This document shows positions 47,587-52,906 of a stretch of DNA of 64,000 nucleotides, one piece after another. The position numbers and the translations under genes were made by a program. Source of the DNA: Nitrospirota bacterium (GTDB lineage: Bacteria > Nitrospirota > UBA9217); NCBI GenBank assembly GCA_963740085.1, contig CAVUCU010000001.1, positions 1-64,000 on the forward strand. Direction: 5' to 3'. Every line of letters begins with the position of its first letter. The stretch's first letter is position 1. The notes beneath the pieces are model-generated. The model had not been told where the DNA came from. It searched no databases and was given only the letters and a program-made list of their open reading frames with translations.

Positions 47587-47607
47587 ATCCGAGAGGACCT
47601 TTGTTGA

Positions 47608-47790
47608 TCAGGATTTGCTTTCTTTTTTCTCTGAATCTTTTGTGTTTTCGCTGGTATCAGAGATACCCTTCTTGAACCCCTTGATGGCCTTTCCGAGCCC
47701 TTCGCCCAGCTGCGGAAGGCGGTTGGCGCCGAAAATAACCAATACGATAACCAATATGACTATCAGCTCCGGCATTCCAAGTCCAAACAT
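47608..47790 (-). CDS. tatA: Twin-arginine translocase TatA/E
   Basis: [21 protein letters not shown]. Confidence 0.95.
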
Positions 47791-48353
47791 GTTGCCTCCT
47801 TGTATTCCTCTGGCGTATTAAGATTCTTAAACGACCGCTGATCAGGATCAAAACGGGCGATCTCCGGTCCTGTAACATACCGCACTCGTGCATCACTATA
47901 AATACCCTGGATCTTTCGCGCGTCCCGGCTGAGCCGCTCTTCGATGACCGGCAGCAAACGCCGGTGATAGAACGCATGAAGCGGCTCGAGGTAGCCTGCA
48001 ACCATCGGCGCGACGATGTCATGGCCATTAGCAAGAGTGGCCATATACGCGATCAAACCGGGGTTCAGAAACGGCATGTCGCAGGCAACCACAAAATTAT
48101 AATCGTCCTGGGAATGCAGCAGGCCGGAATAGATGCCCGTGAGCGGTCCCTGCTTTTCAACAGCATCAGTGACCACAACAGCGTCGTACGAAACATACGA
48201 CGCCGGATCGTTGGTCACGATGATGATCCTCGAGAACACACCGCGGAGCGTCCTCAGAACATGCCCGATCAGAGGAATTCCGTCAAGCATGAGGAATGCC
48301 TTGTCCCTGCCCATTCGCCGGCTCTCGCCGCCTGAAAGCACAATACCAGTCAT
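47763..48353 (-). CDS. mobA: Molybdenum cofactor guanylyltransferase
   Basis: [33 protein letters not shown]. Confidence 0.93.
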
Positions 48354-48358
48354 GTTTA

Positions 48359-48387
48359 AAATTACAGCATTTACCGGGGCGTGTCAA
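48359..48387 (-). promoter_or_regulatory. mobA-tatA-recJ promoter TTGACA-17-TAATTT; probably leaderless
   Basis: -35 48382-48387, -10 48359-48364, only 5 nt before the ATG, no SD. Confidence 0.55.
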
Positions 48388-48515
48388 CCACGAAGTGTGT
48401 CGGAGAGAGTATTATTGAATACTAAAGCCGGGATATGGATGCGAGGTGCGCGCCATTCAGCGGGGCCGAGGAAAGGCGTTTTATCGAGATGTCAGGGCTG
48501 ATATTGTTATGTATA

Positions 48516-48610
48516 TGGAGACTGGTTTCGGAATCGGACCGATAGCGAATCTTGCACGGTTGCCCGACAGGTTTGAAGCCTGCGGCCGGCTCCAGACGAC
48601 TGAACCAGTC
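48516..48610 (-). tRNA. selC*: Non-canonical 8/4 tRNA, anticodon UCA, discriminator U73 (selC*-type; predicted tRNA-Cys reading UGA)
   Basis: GACUGGUU CA GUCGUC UGGA GCCGGC C GCAGG CUUCAAA CCUGU [24-nt variable region] UCGG UCCGAUU CCGA AACCAGUC U CCA; directly downstream of yedF. Confidence 0.8.
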
Positions 48611-48678
48611 TGATGATAAGCATCCGATGAGAAGTGGTTCTGAATACCGCAATAGTTAATTATGAGGTCACTTCCGAA

Positions 48679-49302
48679 TTATACCCACACGGTCTTTTCA
48701 AAATCCTGCATGCCTTCCACGACGATATTCATGGTGCCCCGGTGGCCGACGGCAAGTTTTGACTCAAGGTTATACTTCGTGAGACAGGTACCGCAGGAAT
48801 ATATCTCCACACCCATCTTTTCCATCTCTTGCAACAACCCTGCAATATCAACATCGGTTGTCGTCAGGTACACACCGGTGTTCAGAAAAAAGATCGTGTG
48901 TGGAAGCTGTTTATATACTTTCATTGTTTCAAAGAAGGCCTTCATCAGGGTCTTACCCAGGTACTCTTCCCTCCCCATGATATCGGACCCGACAATGAGA
49001 AGTAGCGACTTCTTCTGTGCCTCCTCACGTTTGACAGGTCCCATATCGAGGCGTGACTGCGGAGAGGCCTCTGATGACTGGACCTTGCAGTCGTATCCCT
49101 TGACGATTTTTACTCTCCAGTCCCTGCCCTCTTTTTTCGATTCGGCAAACAGCGCGTTCAGGACCGCAAACCCGGCGACATTCAGCGCCGACTCCTCGTT
49201 ATCGACTAGGACCTCGATAATTCCCTCCTTTATCTTTGAAAGCGCCTCCTCGGCCATCATCACCGGCTTGGGACATCCCTGCCCTCGTGCATCTATCTGC
49301 AT
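48679..49302 (-). CDS. yedF: Selenium metabolism protein YedF (TusA + DsrE-like domains)
   Basis: IDARGQGCPKPV, VLVDNEES..NV, LGKTLMKAFF, FLNTGV, SCGTCL. Confidence 0.88.
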   Translation of the reverse strand: MQIDARGQGCPKPVMMAEEALSKIKEGIIEVLVDNEESALNVAGFAVLNALFAESKKEGRDWRVKIVKGYDCKVQSSEASPQSRLDMGPVKREEAQKKSLLLIVGSDIMGREEYLGKTLMKAFFETMKVYKQLPHTIFFLNTGVYLTTTDVDIAGLLQEMEKMGVEIYSCGTCLTKYNLESKLAVGHRGTMNIVVEGMQDFEKTVWV

Positions 49303-49334
49303 TACTACATGCCTCCTAAATATTATTTCTATTC

Positions 49335-49813
49335 CTATGCAACCGTTCCACTTGTTGCCTCCGCGGCAAACAGCGCGGCGCCCACGGCCCCGACGAGGTC
49401 AGGCGTCGGAGGCACCAGAACGGCTACCTCGAGTTTCTCATGCAGAAGCCGGACCATGGCATGGTTCTTTGCAACACCGCCGGTGAATACGACCGTGTTG
49501 CCGCGTCCGAGACGATGCACATGGCGGCAAGCCGCTCGACGACGGACAGATGGACAGCCCTGCCGATGTCCCGGGGCGATGCGCCGTGGTTCTTGAGAGA
49601 GATCACCTCCGACTCGGCAAAGACCGTACACATGCTGTTCACCTTGATATCCGCGGTCCCCTTCAATGCCTCGTCGCCGAACTCAGAAAGCGGGATTCCC
49701 AGAGACGCAGCCATTATTTCGAGAAACCGCCCCGTGCCCGCAGCGCACTTATCGTTCATCTGGAAATTCACGACCTTGCCGCTCTCGTCAAGAGAAATGA
49801 CCTTCGAATCCTG
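49335..49813 (-). pseudogene. 3' half of acyl-CoA dehydratase activase (HgdC/BcrAD family), with 1-nt deletion near 49518
   Basis: QDSKVI..MNDKCAAGTGRFLE, SMCTVFAESEVIS, then VFTGGVAKN..VGAVGAAL in the shifted frame; N-terminal half missing. Confidence 0.85.
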
Positions 49814-50356
49814 TCAGCCCACGGGCACTTTTTTACATAACCCGGGAAATACCCGCCGTAACATATCATCACTAAGACGACTCTCCAGGGATTCTTCATA
49901 CTCTACAAGCATTCTCCGTTCCTCAAGAATGTCCCGGGGAGTGTCGTCCCCGGCTATATAATTCCCGTGCTCGATCCGGAGCGAGCCCTCCGCTGCGCTC
50001 AAATCGAATTTCATGCCCCGGTTCCGTTCTATCCACCTGAAACAATCATCATGAGTGCCCACATAGAGAAACGCAAGGTAGCCGTCTTTTTTTATGCAAA
50101 CAATGCGATACCCACATCCCAGGTCGATCTTCTTGCAGTTCTTGATCCGGGCTTCGCCTTTTCTGGTAAACCTGAACTTCTCCCGATCGCCCCGCTTGTC
50201 CCGATGCAAAAGGATGTCTATAAACTCATCGACTTTCCTCGCGGCAACAAGGCTTTCCCCACCCTTTGCCCTTAGAGCCTCAAGACATTTATCGAAGAGA
50301 GGCTCGCGGTAAAAAGTGACCGTATGTCCTCTATCTCCCGTGCAGAAATCCACCAT
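49814..50356 (-). CDS. Hypothetical protein, possible RelE/ParE-like fold
   Basis: KIDLGCGYRIV..FLYVGTHDDCFRWI pattern. Confidence 0.6.
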   Translation of the reverse strand: MVDFCTGDRGHTVTFYREPLFDKCLEALRAKGGESLVAARKVDEFIDILLHRDKRGDREKFRFTRKGEARIKNCKKIDLGCGYRIVCIKKDGYLAFLYVGTHDDCFRWIERNRGMKFDLSAAEGSLRIEHGNYIAGDDTPRDILEERRMLVEYEESLESRLSDDMLRRVFPGLCKKVPVG

Positions 50357-50365
50357 CGTTTCACC

Positions 50366-50884
50366 CTACCGATAACTATGCTGCGCGTTGCACAGCTCAA
50401 GAAATTCAATGAGCTCCTTCCGGATCGCTCTGCCTTTCTGCATGTCATCCGTAGAAAGCAGTTCCAGGAACAAGTCTCCTCCCTCAAGCACGATGGAATA
50501 ACGGGTGATCCCGTATCCTTCTTCGACAGTAAGGTTCTTTTCGATCAGGTTAACGTTATCAAACATCCCGAGCTGGAATGTCTTCTGTTTTTTGAAGAAA
50601 GAGAACCCTCCTGTCTTCTTTACCGTGCCGTCTCTGCGGTTGATCTCTATAACCGTGCCTGTCAGTCTCGATACTACAACGACGATAATGGCAGCTACAC
50701 TGAGAATTACAGGCCAGGGTGGTTCAACACTTCGACTGAACGCGATCATTAGAAGGAATGAAATCGCGAGTACGCCCAAAGCCACACAGAAAAGTTTCGT
50801 TCCTGGCTCATCCCTGTATGACCAGATGTTTTCCTGCGTAGTAAAATCCATAGCCATGAAGTATTGGGCGCTATTTTGCTGCAT
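50366..50884 (-). CDS. Hypothetical two-TM membrane protein
   Basis: Two hydrophobic segments then a soluble domain; start uncertain. Confidence 0.6.
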   Translation of the reverse strand: MQQNSAQYFMAMDFTTQENIWSYRDEPGTKLFCVALGVLAISFLLMIAFSRSVEPPWPVILSVAAIIVVVVSRLTGTVIEINRRDGTVKKTGGFSFFKKQKTFQLGMFDNVNLIEKNLTVEEGYGITRYSIVLEGGDLFLELLSTDDMQKGRAIRKELIEFLELCNAQHSYR

Positions 50885-50901
50885 CCCGTCTTTACCGCAC
50901 T

Positions 50902-51654
50902 TTACTGCACAACCGGCATCTTCGCCTCTTTCCATTCCGCAAAAAGTGCCTGGGCAATAGAGGGATAGGCGAGTTTCATGAGCTTTCGGTAGGCCATGTA
51001 GCTCCTTCCTCCGGTATTGCAGTAAACGATGATCTTCTTCTCTTTCGGCAGAACCTCAGACTTCAGAGCAAAACTCTCCGCGGGGATGTTGATCGCCGAA
51101 GGGATGTGCCCTTCCTTATATTCCGACTCATCCCGCACGTCCACAATAACGAAGTCCCTGTTGCCGCTATCGATCAGCTTCTTAAGATCAGAAGGACTGA
51201 CCTTTGTGGTTTCGATCTTTTTTGCATAATCGGGGCCGGGAACGATCGCATTGCCCTTCTCCTCCCACACAGGGAATCCATCAGCGTAAATGAGAATATT
51301 CTTGTATCCCATCGCGTCCGCTTTTTTTGCAGCTTTCCTGCTCTTACCGCATTTCACGCCGTTGCAGTAGAAGACCATCTGATGGTTCTTGTCCGAAGGG
51401 AGAAGTGAGGTGGATTCTTCCATGCTCTTTTCGGGGATACTCAGGGCGCCCGCGATATGGGCCTCCTGATATTCTTCCCTGGTTCTCGCGTCGATGAGCA
51501 TAAAGTCTTTTTTCTCATCCATCATTGCCTTGAGCTGGTCGGTCGTAACGACCTTGAACTCGATTTCCGCTCCGTGAGCGGATGAGAGCGCAGCTGCTAT
51601 CAGCAGAATTCCCGCGAAGAATAAAACATGCATGATCCTTCTCGTTCTGGGCAT
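50902..51654 (-). CDS. Exported tandem rhodanese-domain protein
   Basis: Signal peptide; IDART.EEY..AHI.GA with YCNGVKCGKS; VDVRD..EY..GHIP with YCNTGGRS. Confidence 0.92.
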   Translation of the reverse strand: MPRTRRIMHVLFFAGILLIAAALSSAHGAEIEFKVVTTDQLKAMMDEKKDFMLIDARTREEYQEAHIAGALSIPEKSMEESTSLLPSDKNHQMVFYCNGVKCGKSRKAAKKADAMGYKNILIYADGFPVWEEKGNAIVPGPDYAKKIETTKVSPSDLKKLIDSGNRDFVIVDVRDESEYKEGHIPSAINIPAESFALKSEVLPKEKKIIVYCNTGGRSYMAYRKLMKLAYPSIAQALFAEWKEAKMPVVQ

Positions 51655-51858: not shown

Positions 51859-52752
51859 TCAAACTAATTTTGACTGGGATTTCAGGTGTTCCAGGAAGAG
51901 TTGATAGAGCCGTGGAAGAGAGCGTTTCTTGTGCGTTGCCACATAAAAACTTCTTTTCATCCGGATATTCGTGATCTTTATTTCTTTGAGCGTTTTGTGC
52001 TTTAATTCTTCTTCAACGGAATATTTCGATACGACTGCGATTCCCAGGCCAGCCTTGACAGCTTGCTTGACCGCATCGGTAGATCCGAAGACACCTGCGT
52101 GCAGCATGGTCTCCATGGAAAAGCCCTGGGCCTCTAATAATTTTTCAGCTTCCCGGCGGGTGCCCGACCCTTCTTCACGCATTACCATGGGATATTTTGA
52201 AAGGTCTTTCAGCTTTATGATGTTGCCTTTAACCATGGGAGGAGAGGACACAACGATCAGTTCATCCTCCATGAACGGTAGAGAGGATATTTGTGAGCTG
52301 TTCAGCCTCGCCCCAACCAGGCCCAGGAGAATTTCGTGCTGCAAGACCTTCTGCACAATCGCCTTCGAGTCGGATACGAGGATCTGAAACGACACCGCTG
52401 GATAAGTTTTTTTAAAGGTTGCCACCAGGGAAGGAAGCAAATAAGTGCCCGGTATCGAACTTGCGCCGATGATCAGTTCTCCGGCGACTTCTTTCTTGAA
52501 TTGACCGATAGCATGTCGGATGCCATCAGCCTTTTCGGTTACTTCGATGGCGTAATTGTACAGGACCTCGGCCTCACCCGTCGGGATGATCTTTCTCCCC
52601 AATCGTTCGAACAGCGTGCACTCGAGATAGTCCTCCAGGGATTTGATATGATCGCTGACGGTCGGCTGGCTGAGCCGCAACTCCCGTGACGCCTTCGAGA
52701 AGCTGCGGTTCCTGAATACGGAAAGGAATATCCTGAGGTGATGAATGTCCAT
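51859..52752 (-). CDS. LysR family regulator (CysL/selenium-metabolism-associated type)
   Basis: SFSKAS.EL.LSQPTVS, IGASSIPGTY.LP, MREEGSGTR, GSTDAVKQAV. Confidence 0.92.
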   Translation of the reverse strand: MDIHHLRIFLSVFRNRSFSKASRELRLSQPTVSDHIKSLEDYLECTLFERLGRKIIPTGEAEVLYNYAIEVTEKADGIRHAIGQFKKEVAGELIIGASSIPGTYLLPSLVATFKKTYPAVSFQILVSDSKAIVQKVLQHEILLGLVGARLNSSQISSLPFMEDELIVVSSPPMVKGNIIKLKDLSKYPMVMREEGSGTRREAEKLLEAQGFSMETMLHAGVFGSTDAVKQAVKAGLGIAVVSKYSVEEELKHKTLKEIKITNIRMKRSFYVATHKKRSLPRLYQLFLEHLKSQSKLV

Positions 52753-52906
52753 GGAATGACAATAGCATCTCCGTTTACGATATGTCAATAGAAACCGTCC
52801 ATTATCTGCAGGAAGGATTCATCCTGAACGATGTAATTATACAGACCGGGAAGCCGCGGAACATATTTTCCCGAACGCGACATAAAGATAAAATTAGAAC
52901 TTTACA

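Follow-up and report, generated by a model that had tools for sequence, protein, structure and literature searches.

The selC* tRNAs, as described in the main text of Mukai 2017 (NAR, PMC5389517), resemble tRNA-Sec, carry U73 and an anticodon of either GCA or UCA, and in some cases have a branch of 8 acceptor-stem and 4 T-stem base pairs (8/4). They always occur alongside a complete selABCD set, and their hosts are anaerobes, including Thermodesulfovibrio and the sources of contigs that are probably of Nitrospirae. According to the same text, a member from D. tiedjei was cysteinylated in vitro, a member from D. biacutus acted in E. coli as a suppressor at the selD opal codon, and the delta-proteobacterial 8/4 members have a bulged A51a in the T-stem, which was found to be dispensable, and a dedicated SelB* encoded downstream. 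The class was later renamed tRNAReC, and the searchable text of PMC13582414 describes the reading of UGA as Cys given a SECIS. For a clostridial member, from D. nigrificans, the searchable text of PMC11415595 gives SelB as the carrier and no interaction with EF-Tu. An acceptor/T branch of 12 bp is the length that EF-Tu prefers (searchable text of PMC11231383), and the main text of Mukai 2017 (PMC5389517) also describes allo-tRNAs of the 8/4 and 9/3 types, for which EF-Tu acts as the carrier in E. coli, whose anticodons together correspond to 35 codons, and for which G73 or U73 together with a long variable arm count as serine-type marks.

The window analysed here is a stretch of 64,000 nucleotides from a Nitrospirota genome assembly (3.46 Mb in 7 contigs, 98.5% complete). 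We confirm that it contains a real UGA-reading tRNA gene, located on the minus strand at 48516..48610 (5' end at 48610, 3' end at 48516) and 95 nt long including an encoded CCA. The gene had been picked out in an earlier note made from the letters of the window; the stems, loops, UCA anticodon, U73 and CCA listed there are all present, and the strand, which was left unstated, is the minus strand. The acceptor stem GACUGGUU/AACCAGUC (minus strand; 5' strand at 48610..48603) has 8 bp and no mismatch, and is joined by the 2-nt linker CA to a 6-bp D-stem, GUCGUC/GCCGGC, with a single U.C mismatch (15/22) and a 4-nt loop, UGGA. The end of the D-arm (48589..48596) holds both this U15.C22 mismatch (48596/48589) and a changed loop base, A20 (48591). 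The anticodon stem consists of 5 bp plus an unpaired outer position, and its loop, CU-UCA-AA, carries the anticodon UCA at 48576..48574. The variable arm of 22 nt, which the note had called poorly paired, in fact forms 7 pairs with a 1-nt bulge and a single C.A mismatch (52/61; 48559/48550) in its distal part (48550..48559), and is the best-covarying helix among relatives, with compensatory changes in 6 of 7 pairs. The T-stem, UCGG/CCGA, has 4 bp and encloses the loop UCCGAUU, and U73 lies at 48519, followed by CCA at 48518..48516; CCA is likewise encoded in 42 of the 43 tRNAs that ARAGORN finds in the genome. As had been remarked, the acceptor stem is free of bulges, but the published bulge (A51a) sits in the T-stem (main text of Mukai 2017), where the window copy has none either.

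Three other readings of these nucleotides were considered. Short-read contigs from runs X1 and X2, of which X1 may be the source sample of the assembly, cover 48516-48610 with zero differences, which rules out an assembly error behind the two stem mismatches. A 9-bp acceptor stem, in which the Rfam alignment pairs A(-1) with U73, is ruled out by the finding that position -1 is A in just 9 of 23 loci of the family. A 7/5 fold would require an A.A pair in the window copy. The eighth acceptor pair is U8:A66 in all 22 distinct sequences of the family, so that the 8/4 split rests on pairing potential and not on covariation.

The tRNA-Sec model of Rfam (RF01852) matches the gene with 52.6 bits (E 9e-8; gathering score 47), the sole Rfam hit across the 64-kb window; passing the gathering threshold signifies resemblance and does not settle class membership. 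ARAGORN calls no tRNA in the window, and in the whole genome it reports 43 tRNAs and a tmRNA, the UGA tRNA behind yedF being absent from this set. The suspicion that standard scanners may miss or mislabel the gene was therefore right in its first part for the window copy, but all 10 relatives tested are called, as 'tRNA-SeC'. The failure on the window copy is attributable to that copy's own mismatches, and mislabelling would be the usual fate of such tRNAs.

Relatives were gathered by BLAST, and a covariance model (R1) was then built from 11 sequences. Within the Nitrospirota family to which this genome belongs, 21 of 64 genomes gave strong R1 matches (63-113 bits), at 23 loci in 9 of 19 genera; the window copy scores 99.8 bits, and the copies of genomes G001 and G003 score 108. 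Weaker matches in the family (~38-43 bits) appear to be canonical selC genes, the genome's own canonical selC scoring 38.2. The tRNA is present in 12 of 32 high-quality genomes of the family (completeness >= 90%, contamination <= 5%), and because of this patchiness it is taken to be dispensable. In this genus it is present in 4 of 9 genomes, and G006 and G008, which are 99-100% complete, have neither the tRNA nor yedF. Widening the search to the order brought in no genome beyond these 64, and no match at E <= 1e-7 was found in 123 genomes drawn from the phylum's other families.

Conservation among the loci begins at G1 and stops at U73/CCA, and the flanks diverge at once and are unrelated. In the alignment of 11 sequences (10 distinct), 94.5% of cells are paired and 6 of 31 pairs have changed on both sides; among 500 shuffles, none equalled the paired cells and one equalled the changed pairs, and slid controls gave 30-53%. 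When 33 distinct sequences were fitted to the model, 94.4% of cells were paired and 15 of 31 pairs covaried, having changed on both sides (0 of 500 shuffles reached this; slid controls paired 27-52%). U73 and the anticodon UCA are found in all 33 distinct sequences, U73 and A2:U71 are invariant or nearly so among relatives, and CCA is mostly encoded. The outer (sixth) pair of the anticodon stem is unpaired in 25 of the 33. Relatives have G15:C22 and the D-loop UGGC, with pair 15-22 formed in 31 of 33 distinct sequences, and CG is found at pair 52-61 in 9 of 10, the window copy alone departing from it.

The genome also encodes the standard machinery for selenocysteine, and the search for canonical selC, selA, selB and selD that the earlier note had proposed returned the complete set. 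The canonical selC, at C3:198420-198518 (66.7 bits), has G73 and is called tRNA-SeC by ARAGORN, and selA and selB lie on the same contig, a few kb from it. The selD gene contains a single in-frame TGA, at codon 14, 3' of which stable hairpins are predicted (-28.3 kcal/mol, z = -4.1). There is one cysS, one selB and a normal tRNA-Cys(GCA) at C4:607560-607635; a second selB or cysS was sought across the genome and not found. Other matches to the selB model in the genome fall below the cut-off and resemble ordinary translation GTPases. The selC*-type call of the note agrees with these findings, in that the gene behind yedF is a second UGA-reading tRNA, with U73, beside a full canonical Sec system. 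Across the family, selB is single in 52 of the 53 genomes with a selB match and selD has an in-frame TGA in 54 of the 56 with a selD match, in both cases whether or not the tRNA is carried, and an association of the tRNA with Sec-type SelD is hence uninformative.

The identity marks of the tRNAs in this genome fall into distinct sets. All five tRNA-Ser and tRNA-Sec start with G1-G2 and carry G73, and the yedF-linked tRNA has G1-A2-C3, A2:U71 and U73. Elsewhere in the genome U73 occurs in tRNA-Cys, tRNA-Gly and tRNA-Thr, and is hence not specific to tRNA-Cys. TGA is the commonest stop codon, ending 1019 of 2240 long ORFs (45.5%), so unrestricted suppression of UGA would be costly.

The gene directly upstream on the same strand is yedF (48679..49302, minus strand; 207 aa), identified by TIGR03527 (181.3 bits against a cut-off of 110) and by the Pfam domains TusA and DsrE. 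Its product is a sulfurtransferase-like selenium metabolism protein with an N-terminal TusA-like and a C-terminal DsrE-like domain. The spacer from the yedF stop codon to G1 of the tRNA (48611..48678, minus strand) is 68 nt long, and no sigma-70-like promoter was found in it; a scan of 47600-50000 gave 0 promoter-like elements and 1 terminator-like element, on the other strand, and such a scan carries no information in this phylum. The tRNA is followed, in the same orientation, by a mobA-like molybdenum cofactor guanylyltransferase gene (47763..48353, minus strand; Pfam NTP_transf_3, with the NCBIfam MobA models below their cut-offs), recJ and relA/spoT. The mobA-like neighbour is conserved within the genus only.

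The position behind yedF, to which the earlier note had drawn attention, recurs across genera. At 9 of the 23 family loci yedF is directly upstream on the same strand with a spacer of 22-77 nt (G000, G001, G003, G013, G020, G030, G034, G063 and G081a), and at one the order is yedF, TGA-containing selD, tRNA (G069). The tRNA is directly upstream of yedF at one locus (G078), a DsrE-only yedF-like gene lies 0.8-2.5 kb downstream at four (G018, G031, G036 and G066), and no yedF-type neighbour is found within 1.5 kb on each side at the other eight (G004a, G004b, G021, G023, G068, G073, G075 and G081b). In G075 a convergent selD is situated 0.8 kb from the tRNA. No match to SelB or CysS was found around the 23 loci. 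Co-occurrence in the family (17 genomes with both tRNA and yedF, 4 with the tRNA only, 19 with yedF only and 24 with neither) gives a Fisher p of 0.007, which is overstated since related genomes are not independent. Neither the yedF linkage nor the SelB*-free, bulge-free form in Nitrospirota is present in the searchable main texts, including that of Mukai 2017; this statement concerns main texts, as distinct from the supplements, which may list this Nitrospirota type together with its neighbours.

Relatives also exist beyond the family. An exact-pattern scan with one genome per species gave 28 loci. MAGs titled Nitrospirota, Nitrospirae or Nitrospiraceae account for 17 of them, and several of these are identical in sequence to family members. 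The other 11 are titled Candidatus Eisenbacteria (5), uncultured delta proteobacterium (2), Clostridia, Acidobacteriota, Desulfococcus sp. and Desulfobulbus sp. (1 each). Each of these 11 copies has a length of 97 nt, and their R1 scores range from 69 to 89 bits; the eighth acceptor pair holds in 5 of them, and a 7/5 fold fits all 11. Ten flanking ORFs from 5 of the outside loci included no selenium gene, their products being HemW, radical SAM, response regulator, CbiM and carbonic anhydrase instead, and SelB was above the cut-off in 4 of 5 outside genomes tested. A link to the published selB*-type loci was sought in a 121-genome sample of the order of the Desulfococcus MAG, but did not emerge; 13 genomes had a hit, comprising G187's own copy, 11 canonical selC genes with G73, and one match in G238. 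The last is a bulged U73/UCA tRNA, and no SelB or CysS homologue is encoded in the 12-kb stretch around it.

We propose, with a probability of about 0.5, that the gene encodes a tRNA of the selC*/tRNAReC class, having the shape of tRNA-Sec, the Cys-type marks U73 and C35-A36 and the anticodon UCA, which inserts Cys at Sec sites by the following putative route. The tRNA would be made as the 3' end of the yedF transcript and then excised, as the spacers of 22-77 nt suggest. The sole CysRS of the cell would charge it with cysteine, a step to which U73, the anticodon and the published assays on other members point. The sole SelB would then bring the Cys-tRNA to a UGA that is followed by a SECIS hairpin, by analogy with the published clostridial member (searchable text of PMC11415595). 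With Cys in place of Sec, selenoproteins could still be made when selenium is short, including the Sec-type SelD, whose UGA at codon 14 we infer to be an obvious client. Charging, delivery, co-transcription with yedF and the role in selenium scarcity are thus inferred from the literature and from synteny. Two substitutions that disrupt stems weaken the window copy, which may be less effective than its relatives. Exclusive use of SelB is not assured, because the 12-bp branch suits EF-Tu and 8/4 allo-tRNAs are used by EF-Tu (main text of Mukai 2017), and in this genome, which has no SelB*, either SelB or EF-Tu could be the carrier.

A more elaborate version of this proposal, which we offer as speculation and would not expect to hold in full, places the tRNA at the end of a selenium operon, as its final cistron (yedF-tRNA; in G069, yedF-selD-tRNA), working with the sole SelB and the sole CysRS. 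It would act as a switch responsive to selenium status, in which transcription of yedF sets the competition between Cys-tRNA(UCA) and Sec-tRNA at every SECIS-UGA, including UGA14 of SelD, and might thereby restart selenophosphate synthesis after starvation without a SelB* or CysRS*. The 12-bp branch would leak part of the pool to EF-Tu.

The caveat in the earlier note that the gene might be a decaying copy gained substance, as only the window copy bears two substitutions that break stems, and its rate of evolution exceeds that of its relatives. Judged by yedF, G003 is a sister genome (90.8% nucleotide identity, 82% at third positions) and G001 an outgroup (~77-78% nucleotide identity, 58-62% at third positions). 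The tRNAs of G003 and G001 are identical, though the third positions of their yedF genes are just 62% identical to each other, and five of the 95 positions of the window copy depart from this shared sequence, all five changes falling on its own branch. Two of these break pairs, G15 to U in the D-stem and G61 to A in the variable arm, and the remaining three fall at sites that vary elsewhere in the family. The chance of all five falling on one branch is P = 5e-4 under a yedF third-position clock, taken as a share of tree length including the outgroup; with a clock from the two sister branches alone the excess is weak (0.03 for a plain 5-vs-0 split, and 0.587^5 = ~0.07 with the 27:19 nucleotide split). 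The rate of the tRNA is ~0.35 of the third-position rate on the branch of the window copy, against a 95% upper bound of 0.06 on the other branches. The cloverleaf has a predicted energy of -24.3 kcal/mol in the window copy, compared with -35.6 in G001 and G003 and -32 to -43 in most others; it is 11.3 kcal/mol weaker than in G001 and G003 and lies 8 kcal/mol above the copy's own minimum free energy. The yedF gene is not decaying, with 4 amino-acid changes on the window branch and 5 on the sister branch. Our reading of these comparisons is that constraint on the tRNA has probably been relaxed in the window lineage.

These data bear on the alternative that the tRNA is functional in the family, but that the copy in this genome is inactive or nearly so and heading for loss. 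We regard this as possible but doubtful. Five changes, two of them breaking otherwise conserved pairs, set against identical copies in G003 and G001, the elevated branch rate (~0.35 against at most 0.06), the weaker cloverleaf, the lower R1 score (99.8 against 108 bits) and the failure of ARAGORN, which is restricted to this copy, all speak for it, as do the genuineness of the changes and the frequency of loss within a genus where fewer than half of the genomes are carriers and G006 and G008 lack tRNA and yedF alike. On the other hand, no damage is seen in the acceptor stem, the anticodon stem-loop, the T-arm, U73 or CCA, three of the five substitutions affect positions that also differ between relatives of working appearance, the adjoining yedF shows no decay, and the two-sister clock gives only the weak excess of 0.07. 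Single mismatches in the D-arm or variable arm are, moreover, tolerated in many natural tRNAs. A quite different possibility is that the tRNA is a Cys-charged opal suppressor, which EF-Tu would deliver for a low-level, SECIS-independent read-through of UGA with cysteine. The 12-bp (8/4) branch is of the length preferred by EF-Tu (searchable text of PMC11231383), EF-Tu delivers 8/4 and 9/3 allo-tRNAs in E. coli (main text of Mukai 2017), and the genome is without a dedicated SelB*; yet selection should oppose free suppression where TGA ends 45.5% of 2240 long ORFs, the neighbours of the gene are selenium genes (yedF, selD) and not general translation genes, and the clostridial member does not interact with EF-Tu (searchable text of PMC11415595), which together make this an improbable account.

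The same features of shape that recall tRNA-Sec raise the prospect of a serine identity, in which SerRS would charge the tRNA through its long variable arm, and, once charged, it would either be converted by SelA and serve as a second tRNA-Sec, or insert Ser as a suppressor similar to the allo-tRNAs. Besides the variable arm itself, the 6-bp D-stem with 4-nt loop that relatives share with tRNA-Sec, the passing of the Rfam tRNA-Sec threshold and the ARAGORN calls of relatives as tRNA-SeC are in its favour, and U73, like G73, counts as serine-type together with a long variable arm in allo-tRNAs (main text of Mukai 2017). We nevertheless consider it slightly less credible even than suppression via EF-Tu: U73 and A2:U71 are (nearly) invariant where the genome's tRNA-Ser and tRNA-Sec all have G2 and G73, UCA is fixed in 33 of 33 sequences, unlike the 35-codon anticodon range of allo-tRNAs (main text of Mukai 2017), and a canonical selC is already in the genome. 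Most improbable of all is a tRNA-shaped regulatory RNA that does not decode, for example a decoy titrating SelB or an element for processing or stability of the yedF message. Its place in the 3' tail of yedF would suit such a function, and regulatory roles are allowed for some unusual tRNAs (main text of Mukai 2017), but the invariant anticodon, U73 and mostly encoded CCA are needs of decoding that would be superfluous in a decoy.

If Cys is inserted as proposed, the annotation of UGA as Sec would be ambiguous in genomes that carry the tRNA, and a Cys form of a 'selenoprotein' may arise from the same codon. The Nitrospirota set, with one SelB, one CysRS and no bulge, would offer a simple setting for the question of SelB versus EF-Tu with an 8/4 Cys-tRNA. 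The recurrent place behind yedF, with selD nearby in some genomes, ties the little-understood YedF to UGA recoding, and the linkage supplies a concrete hypothesis for the regulation of the tRNA. The weakened window copy and the intact sister copies would form a natural pair for studying the rate at which accessory decoders are lost.

Vargas-Rodriguez et al. 2018 (RNA Biol) is reportedly the primary study of tRNAReC and is said to include a survey. In common with selC*/tRNAReC, the yedF-linked tRNA has a tRNA-Sec-like cloverleaf with a long variable arm, an 8-bp acceptor stem and a 4-bp T-stem, U73 and UCA, and it occurs in a genome with full selABCD and in a lineage, Nitrospirae, that is among the anaerobe lineages of the class. 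It differs from the delta-proteobacterial 8/4 selC* tRNAs in having no A51a bulge in the T-stem, from the selC* tRNAs accompanied by cysS* (A1:U72) in having G1:C72, and from the Syntrophobacterales/Desulfobacterales subtype in that the genome has no selB*/cysS* paralogue, whether 3' of the tRNA or at another site; the location after yedF and the two stem mismatches of the window copy further distinguish it from selC* as presented in the main text of Mukai 2017.

The likeness to canonical tRNA-Sec (RF01852) comprises UCA, the 8-bp acceptor stem, the long D-stem with 4-nt loop and the long variable arm. The differences are an 8/4 (12 bp) instead of an 8/5 (13 bp) branch, U73 instead of G73 and A2:U71 instead of G2:C71, and the genome's separate selC, near selA and selB, scores better on the model (66.7 against 52.6 bits). 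Canonical tRNA-Sec is ruled out by the four T-stem pairs (the fifth would be A.A), U73 and A2:U71. With allo-tRNAs it shares the 12-bp 8/4 branch, the tRNA-Sec-like D-arm, the long variable arm and a U73 that is permitted there, and it is unlike them (varied anticodons, Ser/Ala identity) in its fixed UCA, the lack of G3:U70 and the linkage to selenium genes; this assignment was set aside on the invariance of the anticodon among relatives. The genome's tRNA-Cys(GCA) has in common with it U73, C35-A36, G1:C72, C3:G70 and a similar T-stem core, UCGG/CCGA, and is unlike it in its 7/5 branch, short variable loop, normal D-arm, G34 and G2:C71, where the yedF-linked tRNA has U34 and A2:U71; canonical tRNA-Cys is ruled out, as there is no 7/5 cloverleaf, short variable loop or GCA. 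The selC*-type identity is thus supported by every sequence-level criterion examined. To the class the present set adds modestly the recurrent position behind yedF, the SelB*-free and bulge-free form in a Nitrospirota family, and evidence of a copy that appears to be weakening. The class has been known since 2017 (main text of Mukai 2017), and the yedF-linked Nitrospirota tRNA is a new example of it, not a new kind.

Upstream of yedF (48679..49302, minus strand), the gene directly behind which the tRNA lies, the minus strand carries a series of further genes and gene fragments. An acyl-CoA dehydratase activase gene persists as a remnant (49335-49771) 32 nt upstream of yedF, having lost its N-terminal ∼114 residues and with the remainder spread across two frames. 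The sister genome G003 carries the same remnant, so it is older than the split between the two genomes. At 48448, in the spacer that separates the tRNA from the downstream mobA-like gene, two window bases are absent from short-read contigs (two runs). This points to small indel errors in the assembled sequence, and the activase frameshift could be another of them. Upstream of the activase remnant, two same-frame ORFs of 189 and 180 aa (49814-50935, minus strand), parted by one TAG (50368..50366), have no match in Pfam or NCBIfam. The upstream ORF of the pair is 90% conserved in the comparison with G003, and no counterpart of the downstream ORF was found in that genome. A tandem-rhodanese protein weakly similar to rhodanese selenoprotein families (50902-51654, minus strand) and a LysR-type regulator (51859-52788, minus strand) are also encoded upstream of the yedF region.

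The T-loop of the tRNA is UCCGAUU, with C at tRNA position 55 (window 48536), where nearly all tRNAs have U. The C55 is common to G003, the outgroup G001 and two further genomes of the family (G030 and G034), and the other family members have U. In two of the family genomes, a second copy of selD, containing a TGA in frame, adjoins the tRNA, either in the order yedF, selD, tRNA on a single strand (G069 C151:3039-4860) or in convergent orientation (G075 C86:4280-6083). Another genome, G004, contains two tRNA copies with nearly identical flanks (C12:1201220 and C3:325141). In the second of these, the D-stem has lost 1 nt and the acceptor stem contains a mismatch. The selD matches of G004 are likewise duplicated and its contamination is 6%, and the pair may therefore reflect two strains in one bin.

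The genome containing the window also encodes a second tRNA-Ser(UGA) (C3:9433-9522, plus strand), whose score of 49.8 bits against the Rfam tRNA-Sec model exceeds the cut-off. Its acceptor sequence is unlike that of the other four tRNA-Ser, and among the 43 tRNAs found by ARAGORN in this genome it alone lacks an encoded CCA.

Outside the phylum, six 97-nt relatives from Acidobacteriota and Eisenbacteria MAGs (L065, L067, L069, L073, L081 and L084) keep the U73 and UCA marks. They allow no pairing at position 8 and a 5-bp T-stem is possible, and their apparent form is that of a 7/5 long-arm opal tRNA, not of an 8/4 one. Among 121 sampled genomes of the order to which the Desulfococcus MAG belongs, the sole non-canonical matches were G187's own copy and a different U73/UCA tRNA in G238 (L094 / L101, C16:4168-4259). 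No SelB or CysS homologue was found in the 12-kb stretch containing the latter. The 4-bp T-stem of the G238 tRNA contains a bulged A, as in the published delta-proteobacterial type.
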